From NCBI GenBank assembly GCA_018303855.1, contig JAGVXI010000013.1, forward strand, positions 34,735 to 98,734: a stretch of DNA of 64,000 nt, given 5' to 3'. The position numbers were made by a program, and so were the translations under genes. This document shows, in pieces, positions 20,161-56,600 of this stretch. Each line of letters starts with the position of its first letter. Positions within the stretch are counted from its first letter, which is position 1. This DNA comes from Candidatus Pacearchaeota archaeon. GTDB lineage: Archaea > Nanobdellota > Nanobdellia > Pacearchaeales > GW2011-AR1. Under the pieces are notes generated by a model. It was not told where the DNA came from and made no database searches. It saw nothing but the letters and a program-made list of their open reading frames with translations.

Positions 20161-20394
20161 ATGAAGTATAAAGGTGATAGGCATGGAAATTTAATTGAGG
20201 TCTTACCAAAAGGCGTTGAAAAAAGAGTTAGGCTTGGTTGGACTCCGAGTCCAGGGTTATCTCCATTTAAATCTGATGGGGTAGTTTTTGACTATGATAA
20301 AAATGGAATGTTGCTTCCACCATGTCATGAGGACAGAAGCCAAATTCAAGTTCATTACTCGCCTAAGGTCTTTCAAGATAATTTTTTCTTTTAG
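20161..20394 (+). CDS. hypothetical small protein (3-prime end runs into a tandem repeat)
   Basis: ORF only. The stop codon lies inside the 28-bp repeat. Confidence 0.2.
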   Translation: MKYKGDRHGNLIEVLPKGVEKRVRLGWTPSPGLSPFKSDGVVFDYDKNGMLLPPCHEDRSQIQVHYSPKVFQDNFFF

Positions 20395-20469
20395 CTAAAT
20401 TTAAGATAATTTTTTCTTTTAGCTAAATTTAAGATAATTTTTTCTTTTAGCTAAATTTAAGATAATTTT
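20375..20469. repeat. 28-bp perfect tandem repeat, about 3.4 copies (AAGATAATTTTTTCTTTTAGCTAAATTT)
   Basis: Seen directly. It lies upstream of rpiB. Confidence 0.85.
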
Positions 20470-26100: not shown

Positions 26101-26640
26101 ATGAAAGATGAAAAAAGCAAAGAAAGAATCGCCATTTTTATTGATGGAAGCAACCTTTATCATAGCTTAAAAAATTTAAATGTTAATGAAATAAATTTTG
26201 ATAAATTAGTAAAAAAATTAAAAGGCGATAGACAAATTGTTTCTATATTCTATTATAATGCTCCTTTAGACATTAAATATGACCAAAAGAAATACTGGGA
26301 ACAGCAGAAATTTTTTGATAAGTTGAGAAAATTACCTTTCTTCAAAGTTGTTTTATGTAAAATGAGAAAAATAAGAAAAGATGTAAAAATTGTTGGTTAT
26401 GAAGTTAAAGGTGACGATGTTCATTTAGCTGTTGATTTGTTAAGTGGGGCCTATGAAAATCTTTACGATGTTGCAATCATTGTTTCAGGAGACGAAGATT
26501 TTGTTCCTGTTCTAAAAAGGGTCCAAAAATTGGGTAAGAAGGTAGAAAATGCCTATTTTACATCTAGCTCTTCAAATGCATTAAAGAATTCATCAAATAC
26601 TTCAGTTTGCATTAACCATTTTATTAAAGAAATAATATAA
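26101..26640 (+). CDS. NYN-domain (LabA-like) protein
   Basis: RIAIFIDGSNLYHSLKNL...IVSGDEDFVPVLKRVQKLGKKV. Confidence 0.7.
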   Translation: MKDEKSKERIAIFIDGSNLYHSLKNLNVNEINFDKLVKKLKGDRQIVSIFYYNAPLDIKYDQKKYWEQQKFFDKLRKLPFFKVVLCKMRKIRKDVKIVGYEVKGDDVHLAVDLLSGAYENLYDVAIIVSGDEDFVPVLKRVQKLGKKVENAYFTSSSSNALKNSSNTSVCINHFIKEII

Positions 26641-34936: not shown

Positions 34937-35068
34937 TTTACTTATTTTTTAGCTGTAACTAGCTTAAACTGATTAATATACAATTATATATAAACTTATC
35001 GATTGCTTGGTACTAAGCACTCAGTAGTGACGATAAACACTTATAAATGCTAAATCACTCTTTTTTCT

Positions 35069-35542
35069 ATGAAAAAAGAGGGGTCTAATGGTTCTCCATT
35101 TATTCGTGAAAGCGAAACCCATGAAAAAATTCATTCTCATTTAAAAGCTCATCCTCGTGGATTAACTACGCAAGAAATTGAAGAGCAGACAGCAATTTCT
35201 AGAAAAGCTGTAGAAAAACATTTGCAAATACTTTTATTTTCTAACGATATTTATATGAAACAAGTTGGAAGTGCTAGAATTTATTATCCAAACCATAGGT
35301 TTCATCATTTGGACTTTCAATATTTTGACTTTGGAAAAAAAAGATTTTATATAGATTTAATAGAAAATGATTATGGGAAATCATTGTTAATTCAGCAAAA
35401 AATAAAAGAAGGAGATAAATGGGTGATGAAAGGAAGTGTGTTTATCCCCTTAGATGCATCACACGAATTCTTAAAAAGATTAAAAGAAGTATTAAATTCA
35501 AAGAGATTAAAAGGAGAGATGAAAAATGGAAAAAATAGGTAA
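35069..35542 (+). CDS. winged-HTH protein, possible regulator upstream of the R-M methylase
   Basis: GLTTQEIEEQTAISRKAVEKHLQILL is HTH-like. It overlaps the MTase start. Confidence 0.4.
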   Translation: MKKEGSNGSPFIRESETHEKIHSHLKAHPRGLTTQEIEEQTAISRKAVEKHLQILLFSNDIYMKQVGSARIYYPNHRFHHLDFQYFDFGKKRFYIDLIENDYGKSLLIQQKIKEGDKWVMKGSVFIPLDASHEFLKRLKEVLNSKRLKGEMKNGKNR

Positions 35543-42160: not shown

Positions 42161-42439
42161 TTAAGTATTTTTTATTGCCTTATTCAGTTCCTTTATCACT
42201 TCCTCTTCTGATATTGAACTACTTTTTCTCCATTGCTCTTTGTAATCTTTCAAGATAATTATAGTTGGTATAGAAAGAATCTTGTATCGTTTTATTAAGT
42301 CATCATTTTCATCAACATCAACCTTAACAAATTTCACCTTATTTTTATACTTTGGGATTACATTGGATGCTAATGCCTTGTCTAAGATAATGCATGATGA
42401 ACACCATTTTCCTGTAAAATCCAACACCTTTAGTTCCAT
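42161..42439 (-). CDS. thioredoxin-fold protein with WCSSC active site
   Basis: FTGKWCSSCIILDK and cis-Pro region ILSIPTIIIL. Confidence 0.6.
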   Translation of the reverse strand: MELKVLDFTGKWCSSCIILDKALASNVIPKYKNKVKFVKVDVDENDDLIKRYKILSIPTIIILKDYKEQWRKSSSISEEEVIKELNKAIKNT

Positions 42440-42440
42440 T

Positions 42441-42806
42441 TTACCTATTCAACAAAGCCTCCTCAATTATCTTAACCCCAAGATATCTATTGTTTTTGAA
42501 TTTACTTGCAACATAGATTACAATTGGCCTTTCTATTTCTCCAAGACTTTTTTCAAACAATTTGTCTATTTTTCCATTTTCTTTAATTGCTTTCCATAAG
42601 TTAATTGGTTCTTGCCCATTTTCACTTTTAATTATTGAGGCAATTTTCGGGATTATTACCTCAAGAGCTTTTTGTATTTTTTCTTTTAGATGCTCCTCGT
42701 CATACTTACTGCCCTTGTATTCCTTTACAAATTCAATAGATAGATTCTGAATTCCTTGCATTTTCTTACTTTGAACTGTCAACAATTTCTTTGATGTCCA
42801 TTTCAA
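42441..42806 (-). CDS. hypothetical protein
   Basis: 121-aa ORF between thioredoxin and DUF302. No motif. Confidence 0.3.
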   Translation of the reverse strand: MKWTSKKLLTVQSKKMQGIQNLSIEFVKEYKGSKYDEEHLKEKIQKALEVIIPKIASIIKSENGQEPINLWKAIKENGKIDKLFEKSLGEIERPIVIYVASKFKNNRYLGVKIIEEALLNR

Positions 42807-43155
42807 CCCACTCAGCTTCTTCTTTGCTTACCTCTGGAAAGAATTGGGAGATTATTGTAGGTTTCATTCCAACAATTTTTACTCTCCCGCCTTCTTCTAA
42901 AACGTTTATTTTACATGGCATACAAAGAGATATCAACCTGTTTTTATTAAGAAAATTATTTGCATGTTTTCCAGAGCAAATCTCAATTATCTTTAATGGT
43001 TTCTGCTCAAAACCTTTTGCTGCTAATCTTTCTTTAACATCATAAATCTGAAACAAACTCCAGCCTTTTTGTTCAACAGCTTTTAAAATAGACACAACAG
43101 CTTCATCAAAATTTTTGTCTGTTTCAACAACATATGCAAAATCTTCTGTTTTCAT
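42766..43155 (-). CDS. DUF302-domain protein (cassette A)
   Basis: 129 aa, about 85% identical to 54019-54408. KGWSLFQIYD...LKIIEICSGKHAN fits DUF302. Confidence 0.65.
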   Translation of the reverse strand: MKTEDFAYVVETDKNFDEAVVSILKAVEQKGWSLFQIYDVKERLAAKGFEQKPLKIIEICSGKHANNFLNKNRLISLCMPCKINVLEEGGRVKIVGMKPTIISQFFPEVSKEEAEWVEMDIKEIVDSSK

Positions 43156-43367
43156 CTTTTTCTTATGTCAGAATTTTGTATTTGCTTAATTAGCCATACT
43201 ATAAATAAGATTAAAGCAATAAAAACAAGGGTCATAAATAACCATCCAAATAACCACATTCCTCCAAAGCCCACCATCCCCATGCTTCCAAAACCAAATC
43301 TCCAAAAACCTAAAAATAATAAAAGAACAGATACTATGATTACAATTATTAAATTATCGTCTTTCAT
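43152..43367 (-). CDS. small Gly/Met/Trp-rich membrane protein (cassette A)
   Basis: 71 aa with GFGSMGMVGFGGMWLFGWLFM and C-terminal VWLIKQI. Paralog at 53382-53594. ATGA overlaps with neighbours. Confidence 0.45.
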   Translation of the reverse strand: MKDDNLIIVIIVSVLLLFLGFWRFGFGSMGMVGFGGMWLFGWLFMTLVFIALILFIVWLIKQIQNSDIRKR

Positions 43368-43636
43368 TTTCCTTTTTGATTAGCCATCAAAGATTTAACA
43401 AGCCAGACAATAACTGCCACTATTAAAACAAGTAATAAGGTGTTTACTAATACAATTGTAACATTAAAAGAATTTTTATAAGAGTCATAATAACCTGGAT
43501 AATTATTCATCATTCCTCCTCCAGAACCCCCCATATTCATCATCATTTGCATCATGCCACTCGATTCACCACAATAAATTCCTTTAGCCATGTTTATATG
43601 AACCTGTCTTAAACTTTCACTTCCTTCTCCACCCAT
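43364..43636 (-). CDS. Met/Gly-rich tail-anchored small protein (cassette A)
   Basis: MGGEGSESLRQVHINMAKGIYCGESSGMMQMMMNMGGSGGGMM... then a C-terminal TM. The first 32 codons are 100% nt-identical to the paralog at 54405-54737. Start chosen at the internal ATG preceded by GGAG. Confidence 0.5.
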   Translation of the reverse strand: MGGEGSESLRQVHINMAKGIYCGESSGMMQMMMNMGGSGGGMMNNYPGYYDSYKNSFNVTIVLVNTLLLVLIVAVIVWLVKSLMANQKGK

Positions 43637-43823
43637 CTTCTCCAGGATGCATTTGTTCCATGTAATAATCCCCAATAGCCTCGAGTTGTTCATCTGTGAG
43701 TTTATCACAACTAATTCCCGAATCTACAAGCTTTTTTGTTTCAGTAAGGTTATGCTCATGGGCAAGCACAAATGCACTAAATAGCATAATCAATAACACT
43801 ATAGGCAGAGCTATTTTTTTCAT
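43617..43823 (-). CDS. small secreted protein with signal peptide (cassette A)
   Basis: MKKIALPIVLLIMLFSAFVLAHEH... then SCDKLTDEQLEAIGDYYMEQMH. AGGAG sits 7 nt upstream. The 3-prime end overlaps the Met-rich gene by 20 nt in the +1 frame. Confidence 0.5.
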   Translation of the reverse strand: MKKIALPIVLLIMLFSAFVLAHEHNLTETKKLVDSGISCDKLTDEQLEAIGDYYMEQMHPGEDGWRRK

Positions 43824-44398
43824 TTTTCTCCTGTGTCTTTTGTTAAGACAATCCCATAATGATACGGTTTTAAATCATATTTCATTGGATGATTAAACCC
43901 GGAATTTACAGCTAATTCAATGCTTTGTTCTGGCTTAAGCCTAAGTTCCATTGGAGGTCCTCTGGGAGTTGTAGGGTCATAATTCCAATGAATAATCCCA
44001 ACCCTCCTTTCTGGTTTTAAAATTCGATAAGCTTCTTCAAGTAGTTTATTTGGCCTGTCTTTAATAAGAATATTAAAAAGAATAACATAATCAACACTTT
44101 CGTCTTCAAGTCCAGTGCCATCTGACATAAAATCACGAAGAATTGCTTTAACATTCTTTAATTTGTGCTCCCTTGCTTTTCTTTGTGTCTCTTTAATCAT
44201 CTTTGGCTCTATATCAAGAGCATAAACTTTTCCCTTTACAATTTTTGCAGCAGGTATGGTAAATATGCCGTAACCACAACCAAAATCAACCAAATTCTCA
44301 ATTTTCTTGTCAATTCCCATTACCTTAAAGATTCTTTCCACATCAAAGAATTTTCTCCACATTTTTTCTTGTGGCATTCCACTTTCCCTAACTTTCAT
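43820..44398 (-). CDS. small class I SAM-dependent methyltransferase (cassette A)
   Basis: VDFGCGYGIFTIPAA (motif I), ALDIEPKM and VGIIHWNY. 192 aa. 72% identical to 55705-56268. Confidence 0.65.
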   Translation of the reverse strand: MKVRESGMPQEKMWRKFFDVERIFKVMGIDKKIENLVDFGCGYGIFTIPAAKIVKGKVYALDIEPKMIKETQRKAREHKLKNVKAILRDFMSDGTGLEDESVDYVILFNILIKDRPNKLLEEAYRILKPERRVGIIHWNYDPTTPRGPPMELRLKPEQSIELAVNSGFNHPMKYDLKPYHYGIVLTKDTGEK

Positions 44399-44723
44399 TT
44401 TTGCTCCTTATTTTTTTGATTAACTTCTCATTTTTTTTAAGCTGTTTAAATAAAATGTCCCTCATAATGTCGCAGGCTTTAATCATCTCTGGATAAGCTA
44501 AGCTATAGTAAATATTCTTGCCGTTTCTTTTTGTTAAAACAAGATTTTTCTGCCTTAAGATAGTAAGGTGCTGTGAGATAGTTGACTGGGAAATTTTAGT
44601 AAGATTCACTAACTCGCCTACATTTCTTTTCTTATTTCTTAATAGATTTATGATCTCCAATCTTACAGGATTTGAAAGCGTTTTACATATTTCAGCATGA
44701 ATTTCATATAATTCTTTGTTCAT
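44388..44723 (-). CDS. ArsR/SmtB family transcriptional regulator (cassette A)
   Basis: LSNPVRLEIINLL...VGELVNLTKISQSTISQHLTILRQKNLV is the ArsR HTH. About 90% identical to 56265-56600. Confidence 0.7.
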   Translation of the reverse strand: MNKELYEIHAEICKTLSNPVRLEIINLLRNKKRNVGELVNLTKISQSTISQHLTILRQKNLVLTKRNGKNIYYSLAYPEMIKACDIMRDILFKQLKKNEKLIKKIRSKNES

Positions 44724-48868: not shown

Positions 48869-51163
48869 TCAAATCCTCTTTCTTCTTAATAAATTAGCAT
48901 TTGTAACAACAGTTATACTTGATAAAGCCATTGCAATCTCTGCAATAATAGGATGAAGCAAACCCGCAACTGCAACAGGAATGGCAATTGTGTTATATGC
49001 AAAAGCCCAGAATAAATTCTGCTTTATTTTTGAGAAAGTTGCCTTGCTTAAGTTTATTGATTGAACAACTCCATTTAATGAACCTTTAACAAGAACAATA
49101 TCGCCTGCTTCTATTGCAATATCTGTCCCTGTTCCCATTGCAATTCCAACATTGCTTTCTTTAAGTGCAGGGGCGTCATTTATTCCATCTCCAATAAACG
49201 CAACCATTGCTTGTTTTTTCAATTCATTGATTTTTTTTGCCTTGTCTTCTGGCAACACATTTGCTATAACTTCTTTAATTCCAACTTGTTTTGCAATTGC
49301 TTGGGCTGTTTTTTCATTATCCCCAGTTATCATAATTGTTTTATAATCTTCCATATTTAATTTATTAATGGCTTCAATTGAATCTTCTTTAACAGCATCT
49401 GCAATTCCAATAATTCCTATTGCCTTTCCGTTATCAGAAACAATAATTGTAGTAAACCCTTTGCTTTCAAATTCATTTATTTTATTATTAAATTCTTTAA
49501 GATTTATCCCTCTCTCTTTCATTAGGGTTGAATTTCCTATAACTATGCTTTTTTTGCCTATTTCTCCCTCAACTCCTCTTCCTCTTAAAATCTTAAATGC
49601 TTTTACTTCCCTGTATTTTTTTAAATTAGCTTTTTCAACAACAGCTTTTGATAATGGATGCTCACTTAGCTTTTCCAAGCTTGCTGCAACTTCCATTAAA
49701 TATCCTTCCCCAATTTCTGCATAAACTGCCCTAACTTCTGGCTTTCCTTTTGTTATTGTTCCTGTCTTGTCAAACACAATTATTTTAATCTCTTTCATTG
49801 TTTGGATTGCTTCGCCCTTTCTTATGAGAATGCCTCTTTTTGCACCCATACCACTTCCAACCATTAAAGCAGTAGGTGTTGCCAAACCCAAAGCACAAGG
49901 ACATGCGATAACTAAAACAGAAACAGCAACACCTATGGCCCTGCTTAAATCCTTATTAAAATAAAACCAGGCAATAAAAGTTAAAATTGTTATAACTAAA
50001 ACAACAGGCACAAAAACACTTGTTATTTTGTCAGCAAGTGCTTGTATAGGAATTTTTGTTCCCTGGGCTTGCTCAACAAGTTTTATAATATTGGATAAAA
50101 AAGTATCTTTTCCTATTTTAGTTGCTTTAATATACAAAACCCCGTCTTGATTAAGTGTTGCACCAATTACTTTGTCTCCTTTGGCTTTATCAATAGGCAA
50201 GCTTTCACCAGTAACCATGCTTTCATCAACAGCACTTTCTCCTTTAACTATGACTCCGTCTGTTGGAATTTTTTCTCCTGGCTTCACTATTATAACATCA
50301 TTAATTTTAACTTCCGAAATAGAAATCTCAAATTCTTTGTTATTTCTTAAAACAAGGGCATTTTTCGCGCCTAATTCAAGAAGTTTTTTTATTTCTTGGC
50401 TCGCTTTACCTCTTGCCTTCACTTCAACATACTTTCCTGTTAGGAAAAAGGCCATAATCATTGCACTTATGCCAGAATAATCTTGAACATTTATGAAGAA
50501 ACTTAAAACTCCAGTTAAATAAGCAACAACAGTCCCAAGTGCAATCAAAGAATCCATATTAAAATAAAAACTAGTAAATCCCTTTAATCCGCCCTTGAGG
50601 GTTTGAAAACCTAAAACAAATATAATCGGAAAAGAGATAATAAGCAAAACAAATGTCATTTGTTCCGGTGTATTAAACACCTTTAAGCCAAATAATCTTT
50701 CAGAAAACATAATAATAGCTATTGGAATAGTTATCAACCAAGCCCAAATAGTCTTTTTAAACCAAGATTTAATTTCCTTTTCCTCAACACTTCCATGCAC
50801 ATGTTCATTCATCTCTTCGTGGTGTGGATGCTCTTCTTTTTTATGTTCAGAATGTTTTAAATGTTCAATCTGCCTATTATCCTGTCTATCATCAGTAGGC
50901 TCTTTATATTCAATTGACTTATCTTTATTATCCTGCTTATCTTCTTCAAACTCAATTTTTTTAGCGGCATAACCTCCAACTCTTGAAACAGCTTTTTTCA
51001 AATCACTTTCACTAATATCCCCCTCAATTTCAACAAAGCCCTTCTTGGCCATTAAATTAACACTTGCACTTTTTACGCCTTTAACTTTCTTTAAGCTTTT
51101 TTCTATATTAGATGCACAACTAGCACAATGCATTCCTTCAATTTGTATTGTTGCTTTTTTCAT
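48869..51163 (-). CDS. copA: copper-translocating P1B-type ATPase
   Basis: N-terminal HMA domain [12 protein letters not shown], His-rich linker, TM CPC motif [29 protein letters not shown]. Confidence 0.85.
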
Positions 51164-53381: not shown

Positions 53382-53594
53382 TTAGTTAGATATCCGAATT
53401 TGTTTAATCAACCAAACAATTAATAATACTAATACAACAATAATTAATAGCATAAAAATCCATCCAAAAAACCACATGCTTCCGAAGCCATAATTAAACA
53501 TACCCATTACCCCCCACATATCTCCAAAACCTCCGAACAGGAATAATGCTAAAATTATTGCTATAACCACAACCAGCGTGTTATCGTTTTTCAT
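53382..53594 (-). CDS. small Gly/Met/Trp-rich membrane protein (cassette B paralog of 43152-43367)
   Basis: GGFGDMWGVMGMFNYGFGSMWFFGWIFM...VWLIKQI. Confidence 0.45.
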   Translation of the reverse strand: MKNDNTLVVVIAIILALFLFGGFGDMWGVMGMFNYGFGSMWFFGWIFMLLIIVVLVLLIVWLIKQIRISN

Positions 53595-53962
53595 TTTCTC
53601 TCACCTCCTTTTAATTTCCTCAAAATATGAATGCAATGTTCAGCCATGTGTTTGTCAATTAAACCCATAAGAGGCTTTATTGTCTGCTCATTTAACCTAT
53701 AATATCTGTATTTTCCTTCAATTTCAACATCCACAAACCCACAATCTTTTAATCTTGATAAGTCATGTGAGACAGCTGTTTGATCTATTTTCAGCTCTTT
53801 AATAATTTCAGACACATTTTTACTGCCTTTCCTTAATAAGTTTATTATCTTTAATCTTGACTCGCTTATAAGAGTTCCAAAAAATATTTTATATGCTCCG
53901 TAAATTTCCTCTTTATAAAACCCCTCCTTATGGAATGATTTTAATATGGCTTTATTTATCAT
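53591..53962 (-). CDS. ArsR-like HTH regulator
   Basis: RLKIINLLRKGSKNVSEIIKELKIDQTAVSHDLSRLKDCGFV. Confidence 0.55.
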   Translation of the reverse strand: MINKAILKSFHKEGFYKEEIYGAYKIFFGTLISESRLKIINLLRKGSKNVSEIIKELKIDQTAVSHDLSRLKDCGFVDVEIEGKYRYYRLNEQTIKPLMGLIDKHMAEHCIHILRKLKGGERK

Positions 53963-54018
53963 ATGAAAACTAAGTACATACAGCTATTTAAGGTTTTCTA
54001 TCCTCATTTTTTAATGTC

Positions 54019-54408
54019 TTATCTTGCTTTATCCACAATTTCTTTAATATCTTTTTCTACTTCTTCAGTTTTTTTTCGACTAACCTCAGGAAAGAATTGG
54101 GAAATTATTGTAGGTTTCATTCCAGCAATCTTTATCTTTCCATTTTCTTCAAGGACATTTATTTTACACGGCATACAAAGAGATATTAACCTGTTTTTAT
54201 TAAGAAAAATATTTGCGTGTTTTCCAGAGCAAATCTCAACTATCTTTAATGGTTTCTGCTTAAATCCCTTTGCAGCCAATCGTTCTTGGATATCATAAAT
54301 CTGAAACAAACTCCAACCTTTTTGTTCAACTGCTTTCAGCACTGAAATAACAGCCTCATCAAAACTTTTATTGGTTTCAACAATATATGCAAAATCTTCT
54401 GTTTTCAT
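54019..54408 (-). CDS. DUF302-domain protein (cassette B)
   Basis: Paralog of 42766-43155. Confidence 0.65.
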   Translation of the reverse strand: MKTEDFAYIVETNKSFDEAVISVLKAVEQKGWSLFQIYDIQERLAAKGFKQKPLKIVEICSGKHANIFLNKNRLISLCMPCKINVLEENGKIKIAGMKPTIISQFFPEVSRKKTEEVEKDIKEIVDKAR

Positions 54409-54737
54409 TTTTTTCTACGCCCTATACCTCTTCCAGAACTCTTTATCTGTTTAATCAACCAAACTATCAGTAGAACTAAAATAATAATCACAAGAATAAT
54501 AAATAACCAACTAAACACATTGTAACCACTATAGTAGCTTCCATTTATTCCTTGCATCATGCTACCCTGTATATTTTGTCCTCCCATCATACCTCCAGAA
54601 CCGCCCATTATTCCACCAGAACCCATCATGTTGCCCCCCATCATCATTTGCATCATGCCACTCGATTCACCACAATAAATTCCTTTAGCCATGTTTATAT
54701 GAACCTGTCTTAAACTTTCACTTCCTTCTCCACCCAT
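54405..54737 (-). CDS. Met/Gly-rich tail-anchored small protein (cassette B)
   Basis: MGGEGSESLRQVHINMAKGIYCGESSGMMQMMMGGNMMGSGGIMGGSGGMMGG... then C-terminal TM LLIVWLIKQI. Confidence 0.5.
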   Translation of the reverse strand: MGGEGSESLRQVHINMAKGIYCGESSGMMQMMMGGNMMGSGGIMGGSGGMMGGQNIQGSMMQGINGSYYSGYNVFSWLFIILVIIILVLLIVWLIKQIKSSGRGIGRRKK

Positions 54738-54918
54738 GCATTTGTTCCATGTAATAATCCCCAATAGCCTCAAACTGTGCATCAGTAAAATTGTTGCAGC
54801 TAATATTAGAATTAATAAGCTGTTTTGTTTCAGCAAAACTCTGTTCATGAGCTGATACTAAGAATGCAATTAGTAGTAATATTCCAAAGGCGAATATTGT
54901 TAGTGTTATTTTTTTCAT
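54718..54918 (-). CDS. small secreted protein with signal peptide (cassette B)
   Basis: MKKITLTIFAFGILLLIAFLVSAHEQS...SCNNFTDAQFEAIGDYYMEQMHGWRRK. GGAGGT sits 7 nt upstream of the internal ATG chosen as start. Confidence 0.5.
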   Translation of the reverse strand: MKKITLTIFAFGILLLIAFLVSAHEQSFAETKQLINSNISCNNFTDAQFEAIGDYYMEQMHGWRRK

Positions 54919-54997
54919 TTTGATACCTCCATTACATTTATTATTACTATATCTGGAATAAGTATCTTGCCACTTAAACCGTTTTAAACCATTATTA

Positions 54998-55468
54998 TCA
55001 TCTTTGCAAATATACATTGTAAGTTTTTCCTGTCCTTTTTCTTTGAATTAAATTTCTCTTATCTAAATTAGTTAAAATTGTTGAAATCTTGGCTTTACTC
55101 CAGTCTAATCTAAACCTTAATGAATCTTGGGTAATTTCCCCAGCTTTTTTTATCTCATCTAAAATATCTTTTTCATCTTTTGACAAAGCTTTTCTTAAGA
55201 TACTATATTCTTTTTCTTTATTTTCATGCTTAAATAAATAAAAGGAAACAAAAAAAACCACAAGAAGTGCAATAATTAATGATATCAAGGTTATAACCGT
55301 AGATTTATTATTAGAACTCCTTATCTGATCCATCATATCTGCCATCGAAGTTGGCTCCTTAACAAAAATTTGGCTTAATATCAAAAGCATAATAAGATAT
55401 AATATAACTCCCACTAACAGAATAAACAATACCTTTGACACATTGTTTATATTTTGTAAATTATTCAT
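54998..55468 (-). CDS. membrane-anchored winged-HTH protein
   Basis: N-terminal TM plus C-terminal ...ISTILTNLDKRNLIQRKRTGKTYNVYL. Similar architecture to 63027-63506. Confidence 0.45.
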   Translation of the reverse strand: MNNLQNINNVSKVLFILLVGVILYLIMLLILSQIFVKEPTSMADMMDQIRSSNNKSTVITLISLIIALLVVFFVSFYLFKHENKEKEYSILRKALSKDEKDILDEIKKAGEITQDSLRFRLDWSKAKISTILTNLDKRNLIQRKRTGKTYNVYLQR

Positions 55469-55691
55469 TTTTCCCCCAGGTTATTTTATTCCACGCGCGT
55501 TCGTGATAATAATAGATAATGATCTTTAAAGTTATTTCAAAAAAACCTACACCAAAGGAGATAATAAAGCTTTTTGTAAAAATAAATACTAAAATTATCG
55601 TTGTAAGTGTTGCAATTATTCTCCAACTAATGCTTTTAACAATACTTCTCTTATGTGTGTCTATTATTTTTTTGTGTTTATCTTTTTTCAT
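55461..55691 (-). CDS. DUF2061 family membrane protein
   Basis: KRSIVKSISWRIIATLTTIILVFIFT...IIYYYHERAWNKITWG. Confidence 0.5.
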   Translation of the reverse strand: MKKDKHKKIIDTHKRSIVKSISWRIIATLTTIILVFIFTKSFIISFGVGFFEITLKIIIYYYHERAWNKITWGKNE

Positions 55692-55704
55692 TTTTATCTT
55701 TAGC

Positions 55705-56268
55705 TTACTTTCTTAAAACAATCCCATAATGATAAGGTTTAAGATTATACATTTTGGGATTGTTAAATCCAAATAAAACAGCTAATTCAATGCTTTGTTT
55801 TGGCTTAAGTCTAAGTTCCATTGGAGGTCCTCTGGGGGTTGTTGTATCATAATTCCAATGAATAATCCCAACTCTCCCTTCTGGTTTTAAAATCCGATAA
55901 GCTTCTTCAAGTAGTCTGTTTGGTTTATCTTTAGTAAGAATATTAAACAGCAGGACATAATCTACACTTTTATCACCAAGTCCGGAACCTTTGGACATAA
56001 AATCACGAAGCATAGTTTTTATATTATTCAATTTATATTCTCTTGCGCCTTTTTGTGTTTCTTCAATCATCTTTGGTTCTATATCAATAGCATAAACCTC
56101 TCCTTTCACTATCTTCGCAGCAGGAACAGTAAAGGTCCCATAACCGCATCCAAAATCTGCTACATCTTTAACCTCTTGATTTAGCCCCAAAGTTCTTAAT
56201 ATTCTGTCAGGTACGAAAAAATTTTCCCACATTTTTTCTTCTGGCATGCCACTTTCTTTAATTTTCAT
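55705..56268 (-). CDS. small class I SAM-dependent methyltransferase (cassette B)
   Basis: ADFGCGYGTFTVPAA and AIDIEPKM. Paralog of 43820-44398. Confidence 0.65.
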   Translation of the reverse strand: MKIKESGMPEEKMWENFFVPDRILRTLGLNQEVKDVADFGCGYGTFTVPAAKIVKGEVYAIDIEPKMIEETQKGAREYKLNNIKTMLRDFMSKGSGLGDKSVDYVLLFNILTKDKPNRLLEEAYRILKPEGRVGIIHWNYDTTTPRGPPMELRLKPKQSIELAVLFGFNNPKMYNLKPYHYGIVLRK

Positions 56269-56600
56269 TTTCCCCTCCTGATTTTTTGGACTAACTTTTC
56301 ATTTTTCTTAAGCTGTTTAAATAAGATATTTCTCATAATATCACAAGCTTTGATCATTTCAGGATAAGCCAGGCTATAGTAAATATTTTTCCCTTTTCTT
56401 TTTGTCAAAACAAGGTTCTTTTGCCTTAAAATAGTAAGATGCTGGGATATAGTTGACTGGGATATTTTAGTAAGATTCACTAACTCGCCGACACTTCTTT
56501 TTTTGTTTCTTAATAGATTTATAACCTCTAATCTTACAGGATTTGATAGTGTCTTGCATATTTCAGAGTGGATTTTATACACTTTTTTGTTCATAATCAT
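56265..56600 (-). CDS. ArsR/SmtB family transcriptional regulator (cassette B)
   Basis: Paralog of 44388-44723. Confidence 0.7.
   Translation of the reverse strand: MIMNKKVYKIHSEICKTLSNPVRLEVINLLRNKKRSVGELVNLTKISQSTISQHLTILRQKNLVLTKRKGKNIYYSLAYPEMIKACDIMRNILFKQLKKNEKLVQKIRRGK

Follow-up and report, generated by a model that had tools for sequence, protein, structure and literature searches.

Apparent overlapping genes with a recoding signal in a Pacearchaeota genome: a conserved membrane-protein gene most likely split by local assembly errors

Introduction

Programmed +1 frameshifting, as known from prfB and from the genes of antizyme, relies on a slippery site where the tRNA held in the ribosomal P site re-pairs with the message in the +1 frame; in sites of the prfB type the sequence reads CUU UGA C, and an element resembling a Shine-Dalgarno sequence is present upstream. 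Methionine-rich proteins that bind copper in the periplasm are likewise familiar, with CopC, PcoE and the Met motifs of the CusF type as examples. Gene conversion between paralogues is also a known phenomenon. With genomes reconstructed from metagenomes a further kind of event has to be considered, as local assembly errors are prominent in the assemblies produced by IDBA-UD (Chen et al., 2020, PMC7111523). The error types described in that work are an unsupported consensus, Ns placed despite an overlap and a wrong number of repeats.

The locus that we discuss here can be set against each of these systems. It belongs to a stretch of 64,000 nucleotides from a Candidatus Pacearchaeota archaeon (the window), in which two paralogous cassettes each appear to hold a gene for a short secreted protein, overlapped out of frame by a gene for a Met-rich product. 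The initial annotation of this DNA saw in the overlap either the trace of a recoding signal or of an RNA element, or the outcome of a recent gene conversion. From sequence alone, damage of the kind described below looks like a pair of overlapping genes that carry a recoding signal.

Two paralogous copies and their identical core

The two copies stand approximately 11 kb apart, in cassettes whose genes are on the minus strand (Table 1). In the window sequence, the second ORF is in the +1 frame relative to the first one, with 20 nt in common. The 68-aa ORF of copy A ends …MEQMHPGEDGWRRK at its stop codon, while the second ORF begins with an ATG at 43636, and the ORFs of copy B are arranged in the same way. 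Direct comparison bears out the two blocks of perfect identity that had been noticed between the cassettes, 43541-43636 being identical to 54642-54737 and 43649-43682 to 54738-54771, and it enlarges both of them: the first is 3 nt longer than had been annotated (99 nt against 96), and the second comprises 36 nt against 34 if one allows for ambiguity in placing the indel. The 12-nt indel present in copy A only (43637-43648), as well as the 6-nt indel adjoining the 96-nt block, is confirmed by alignment. Slippage between two TGGAGAAG octamers was considered as the source of the 12-nt difference and set aside, their spacing being 13 nt, not 12.

Outside these blocks the cassettes are 80-81% identical (BLAST, for the ArsR/methyltransferase, DUF302 and Met-rich segments), and, the blocks apart, they share no exact match longer than 26 nt. 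With the chance of an exact run of 99 nt at 80% identity being about 0.8^99 = 2.5e-10, the blocks are therefore far beyond what chance would produce.

Table 1. Coordinates, in the window, of the gene copies, of the identical core and of the surrounding cassettes.
Feature	Coordinates	Strand	Content
Copy A of the single gene	43364..43823	-	In the window: 68-aa ORF 43617..43823 and 90-aa ORF 43364..43636
Copy B of the single gene	54405..54918	-	In the window: 66-aa ORF 54718..54918 and 110-aa ORF 54405..54737
Remnant of the 168-nt repeat, copy A	43538..43682	-	99-nt block 43538-43636 (= 54639-54737) and 34/36-nt block 43647-43682 (= 54736-54771)
Remnant of the 168-nt repeat, copy B	54639..54771	-	Exact matches between copies A and B
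23-nt deletion junction, copy A	43636..43637	-	Missing on the minus strand: CACACGAATTAATGGATAATATG, repeat positions 47-69
35-nt deletion junction, copy B	54737..54738	-	Missing on the minus strand: ATCCTGGAGAAGCACACGAATTAATGGATAATATG, repeat positions 35-69
Cassette A	42161..44723	-	ArsR 44388..44723; SAM methyltransferase 43820..44398; split gene; small Gly/Met/Trp-rich membrane protein 43152..43367; DUF302 42766..43155; thioredoxin 42161..42439
Cassette B	53382..56600	-	ArsR 56265..56600; methyltransferase 55705..56268; DUF2061 55461..55691; DUF7343/MarR-like membrane regulator 54998..55468; split gene; DUF302 54019..54408; ArsR-like 53591..53962; small membrane protein 53382..53594
HMA P-type ATPase	48869..51163		Downstream of cassette B

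A single open frame in other genomes

When both halves were joined in a conceptual fusion and used as a query, 1066 homologues were retrieved, typically 155-195 aa in length, many of which cover 100% of the fusion within one ORF. These proteins are continuous across the place where the window has its junction (…EAIGDYYMEQMHPGEAHELMDNMMGGEGSESLRQVHINMAK…), their sequence reading there …MEQMHPGEAHELMDNMMGGEGSE…. What the window lacks is the segment PGEAHELMDNM or AHELMDNM, the rest being frameshifted, and it is part of the most conserved segment of the family: in an alignment of 24 sequences G61, E62, H64 and M70 are invariant, and P60, A63, E65, M67 and D68 nearly so.

A scan of species-representative genomes yielded 80 loci, in other DPANN archaea and in a few CPR bacteria, from 79 of which the core could be extracted. 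A single open frame runs across the junction in each of these 79 cores, none of which has a frameshift at that place; in 26 of the 79 the two exact motifs are present in the same frame, 51 nt apart. The family may be recognized by the motif C…EAIGDYYMEQMHPGEAHExMDxMMGGEGSESLxQxHIxMAxxxYC, with a Met/Gly-rich stretch and a transmembrane helix after it. This motif is found in one ORF in the intact forms of copies A (contig L007) and B (contig L001) from other assemblies, and in no single ORF of the window sequence as deposited. The overlapping genes are thus the two halves of one archaeal membrane-protein gene, split by an assembly-specific deletion; the 20-nt overlap, correct as a reading of the window, is most likely no feature of the organism.

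Intact copies in assemblies of the same population

The intact form of both copies can be seen in independent assemblies of the same Rifle-aquifer population. For copy A it encodes 160 aa and is present on 12 contigs; the interval 43364..43823 is identical to L007:6576-7058 except for a gap of 23 nt, which over the 12,579 nt of that contig is the sole difference from the window, with 0 mismatches. The intact copy B encodes 182 aa from MKKITL (L001:10100-10648), or 215 aa as called in other assemblies (P0089, L001:10001-10648), and this longer product is encoded by 17 contigs, which come from several samples of ENA and JGI. Here again, 9,263 and 10,333 nt on either side of the junction match L001 with 0 mismatches, the placement of the deletion being ambiguous by at most 2 nt. 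The deletions of 23 and 35 nt are each of length 3n+2, so that the frame is shifted. At the junctions the window reads …CCTGGAGAAG or …CAAATGC, joined directly to ATGGGTGG….

The junction in its intact form, 69 nt long, was identified in 12 contigs from other assemblies (ENA and JGI). With a gapped pattern that left the length of the junction free, this 69-nt form was recovered in 11 of 12 loci and in one further metagenome contig, the latter being the single match, intact, of the scan of metagenome contigs. Genome contigs scanned with the same pattern for junctions of 2-39 nt, in a collection that does not include this organism, gave no match. As to the deleted forms, they belong solely to the NCBI record (MBS3085963.1, MBS3085984.1 and MBS3085985.1, the split ORFs J4225_04755, J4225_04860 and J4225_04865 of a 121,687-bp contig), bar one contig-end fragment: the 110-aa split protein recurs at the end of one JGI contig. 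When the split ORFs were looked up by exact protein sequence, no contig was retrieved beyond the NCBI source and that fragment, and the deleted forms were absent from every primary metagenome assembly searched. The remainder of the window is nearly uniform between samples. Positions 1-38742 share 100.000% identity with the JGI contig C687J26635_10000179, and this contig together with the ENA scaffold_133 matches the 64 kb at 100% identity, the two deletions excepted.

Some minor variation was noticed elsewhere in the window. A tandem repeat with a unit of 28 nt occupies positions 20375-20469 (an exact self-overlap of 67 nt at offset 28), and another assembly (L097) lacks one of the units, at 20402, reflecting either variation in copy number or a repeat-related difference between assemblies. 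Compared with the scaffold of one other sample (L096), short and dense clusters of SNPs and indels are present at 26427-26483, in or next to a gene for an NYN-domain protein, and at 35063-35119. They look like localized strain-variable spots, in 64 kb that are otherwise nearly invariant among samples.

Recoding and RNA elements as explanations of the core

One reading proposed at first for this arrangement was a programmed +1 frameshift at AAG-UGA-A, with the purine-rich GGUGGAGAAGGAAG as its stimulator and a fusion of the secreted and the Met-rich protein as its product. The likeness to prfB, while superficial, is easily seen: in both copies of the window an in-frame UGA stop is preceded by a run of purines and followed by an ORF in the +1 frame. 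Yet the configuration belongs to one assembly and is not conserved, as the 79 loci of other genomes and the assemblies of the same population have the gene in a single frame. There is also no slippery codon in the P site: in AAG UGA A, by the rule of re-pairing known for prfB and antizyme sites, the tRNA-Lys placed on AAG has no possibility of re-pairing on AGU. The junction sequences, furthermore, differ between the copies. A shift at the UGA would produce …MHPGEDGWRRK-ESLRQ…, a protein without the predicted helix 62-70 and without the MMGGEGS motif, lacking the invariant M70, M71, G72, G73, E74 and S76. The purine-rich run, which had been likened to a stimulator of the Shine-Dalgarno type, is ordinary coding sequence, corresponding to the codons of the invariant GGEGSE, and it varies with synonymous choice in the orthologues: glycine is encoded there by GGT, GGC, GGA or GGG, the codons of glutamate and serine vary too, and Ser76 (codon index 48) is TCT in 29 and AGT in 1 of 59 orthologues. 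We give this frameshift practically no credence, and consider that programmed recoding at this place is refuted as far as sequence comparison can tell.

Identity of the core at every position, third positions of codons included, would also be accounted for by a functional RNA or DNA element, for instance a structured RNA, a regulatory site or a binding site, that constrains the nucleotides of both copies. The suppression of synonymous changes that such an element implies, which had been put forward as a check, is not what orthologues display, as they vary freely at third positions: the codon is the same as that of the reference in 43.7% of cases in the core vs 40.1% in the flanks (64 orthologues), and the closest orthologue has 75% identity over the 168 nt of the intact core. 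The initial annotation itself had set free variation of third positions against a recoding signal or an RNA element, and by this standard both alternatives are therefore refuted. Folding of the core was no better than that of shuffled sequences (minimum free energy z-score of +1.39 with the core intact, of +0.31 with the core as it stands in the window), and a search of Rfam over 15.5 kb gave no match at E<=1. The borders of the tract are abrupt, as expected of a conversion tract. That an element of this kind constrains the core appears extremely improbable.

Gene conversion between the copies

In the intact genes, the longest substring common to A and B is 168 nt long, and the residues 43637-43648 that are specific to copy A in the window likewise belong to it. 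This exact tract contrasts with a background of about 80% identity, its 30-nt flanks being strongly diverged. All 45 degenerate codons of the core are identical between the copies, whereas in the neighbouring pairs of paralogues (ArsR, methyltransferase and DUF302) the same codon is used in 68% of the degenerate codons that specify the same amino acid; at this rate, the probability of 45 identities out of 45 is approximately 3e-8. A collapse of the two copies by the assembler was considered and rejected: IDBA-UD, MEGAHIT and JGI assemblies, for many samples, have the same sequence in both contexts. This agreement of all assemblers and samples means that the 168-nt identity is real. With its sharp borders and homogenized synonymous sites, the tract is best explained by recent gene conversion between the paralogues, and of the possibilities raised at the outset it is this one that has held. 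There is nothing unusual in it when compared with what is known of conversion between prokaryotic paralogues, where a short identical tract has the same features, and the phenomenon is routine content of this locus. The tract coincides with the most conserved segment of the protein, and it is probably from this segment that the initial homology came.

The gene occurs in a third version on a short contig (L105:19-507, P0003; ENA k141_449653, 629 bp). This version is a mosaic: a 5′ part that is strongly diverged, at about 60% identity, precedes the same core and the tail of copy A, and the first codon of the core differs by a synonymous GAG/GAA change. The contig may be chimeric, or the gene may be a third paralogue or allele with the same conversion tract; the case points to repeated recombination at the core or, possibly, to another assembly chimera.

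Origin of the deletions

The repeat of 168 nt exceeds both the 150-nt reads and the k of 100 of the Rifle data set. The Rifle aquifer was sequenced as 150-nt paired reads that were assembled with IDBA-UD (maxk 100), and bins were curated by automated detection of regions of zero coverage, the flagged regions being locally re-assembled with Velvet (PMC5079060, PMC8204110). From the neighbours of its locus tags and accession (JAGV… RIFCSP isolates) and from its 100% identity with Rifle contigs, we infer that the record of the window probably went through this IDBA-UD and Velvet pipeline.

Other assemblies also break at this very place. MEGAHIT contigs (k141) end exactly 141 nt into the repeat, from either edge (L009 and L104, the latter representing 11 more similar places), L014, a JGI contig, begins 101 nt from the 3′ edge, the IDBA-UD scaffold L010 stops at position 55 of the repeat and, by coordinate arithmetic, C687J26635_10000179 ends at about window position 43,638, which is the junction of copy A. 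Both deletions of the window end at repeat position 69/70, that is 99 nt from the 3′ edge, or k−1 for k=100; their left ends, at positions 34-36 in copy B and 46-47 in copy A, do not fit a simple k−1 rule, although the end of scaffold L010 is close by. Reciprocal chimeras of the two copies are found in other assemblies, with the head of A and the tail of B in L008 and the converse in L013, L103 and P0001/P0002.

The coordinates of these chimeras are L008:2528-3070, on a 10,754-bp contig, and L103:617-1204, and on a JGI contig of 123,643 bp the head of B is followed by the tail of A without the 11 kb that separate the copies. Recombination through the 168-nt repeat may have generated them as real variants, by deletion and duplication; alternatively, they are path errors of the assemblers.

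The lesion of the window thus resembles the local errors described for IDBA-UD (PMC7111523) in several respects: the exact repeat around it exceeds k as well as the reads in length, it is missing from independent assemblies, other assemblies have contig ends and chimeric joins at this repeat, and its right junction is k−1 from the edge of the repeat. It differs from them in that none of the published types is exactly that of a short deletion where the ends of two contigs overlap. We may then propose the following sequence of events. The genome would contain copies A and B with an identical tract of 168 nt (codons 48-103 of copy A), and the deposited assembly (J4225_*) would have been mis-built inside this repeat in both of them, with the loss of 23 nt from A and of 35 nt from B. 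The frameshift would yield an apparent short secreted protein ending at the UGA, and a seemingly separate Met-rich gene would begin at an internal methionine codon, with the 20-nt overlap as a result. A possible route is that left and right contigs which truly overlapped by about 30 nt were joined after the trimming of a noisy, estimated overlap. The deletions are most likely local assembly errors within the exact repeat, and the out-of-frame overlap with its UGA "site" most likely belongs to one deposited assembly, as an artefact of assembly or of curation.

The competing interpretation is that of a minority Pacearchaeota strain, with real frameshifting deletions in both paralogues that would make them pseudogenes or split genes. 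The core is after all a demonstrably recombination-active tract; the deletion of copy B contains that of copy A and has the same right end, which fits a nested history in two steps, where for example a deletion of 23 nt was copied to the second paralogue by the conversion that homogenized the core and was followed by a loss of 12 nt; and there is a microhomology of 2 nt (AT) at the borders of the 12-nt difference. Against this, 64 kb are without any other difference from the assemblies of other samples, and in the absence of a single SNP a separate lineage that went through three rare events is unlikely. The deleted forms are not found in the primary metagenome assemblies searched, the right end that they have in common falls exactly k−1 = 99 nt from the edge of the repeat, and the residues that they lose are invariant in the family. 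It is highly probable that the deletions are artefactual and do not represent rare alleles of the population; a strain of this type is unlikely to exist. Were the deletions real, the conversion tract might act as a hotspot for frameshifting deletions, which would then pass from one paralogue to the other, an improbable scenario with the consequence that a putative metal-binding envelope protein would, in a sub-population, be switched off or split into secreted and membrane halves in both copies, in other words that the surface protein of a DPANN archaeon would undergo recombination-driven on/off variation.

In the preferred account, that of an assembly artefact, the practical consequence is for annotation. 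In the deposited MAG both copies of a conserved gene are frameshifted, and NCBI lists them as at least three separate hypothetical proteins. When an exact repeat between paralogues is longer than the reads, local misassembly should be presumed likely before a biological reading is attempted.

The intact family and its gene neighbourhoods

The intact protein is made of an N-terminal signal peptide, a helical domain of about 70 residues, a Met/Gly-rich linker, which is disordered, and a C-terminal transmembrane anchor. The conserved domain comprises four short helices with invariant cysteines C39 and C92, together with His, Met and Glu residues; in an AlphaFold2 model the mean pLDDT is 74, with values of 80-93 over this domain. 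Foldseek gave no match in the PDB better than E = 2.7, and searches of Pfam and NCBIfam, with the halves as well as with the intact protein, gave no model for the conserved domain. SHOCT (PF09851) was the sole match in these collections, in the tails of homologues, many of which end in SHOCT after their transmembrane helix in the manner of the small SHOCT membrane proteins. The Met/Gly-rich, His-containing extracytoplasmic segments recall the Met-rich proteins that bind copper. The N-terminal helical domain, which has neither a Pfam or NCBIfam model nor a PDB fold, separates the family from both of these groups. With more than 1000 members, mostly in DPANN archaea and in a few CPR bacteria, the family is uncharacterized.

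The neighbours of the gene encode ArsR, methyltransferase, DUF302, thioredoxin/DsbA, HMA P-type ATPase, cupredoxin, DUF411 and FTR1, so that its cluster is metal-resistance-like, for copper or another metal. Composition and gene context suggest an extracytoplasmic role in metal handling, and the family may represent a possibly new extracytoplasmic domain, with predicted binding of metal. This large family, linked to metal resistance and still uncharacterized, may merit a study of its own.

Two further features of the cassettes can be recorded. Paralogous membrane proteins of 70-71 aa, rich in Gly, Met, Phe and Trp and assigned to no family, are encoded at 43152-43367 and 53382-53594 of the minus strand; their C-terminal transmembrane segment and tail (…LIVWLIKQI…) is nearly the same as the transmembrane anchor of the split gene in copy B, and may be a module in common with the Met-rich protein. 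Finally, between the methyltransferase and the split gene, cassette B has two genes that are absent from cassette A (54998-55691, minus strand), one for a DUF2061 membrane protein and the other for a membrane-anchored winged-helix protein (DUF7343/MarR-like); the ORF of the latter overlaps copy B in its upstream extension.
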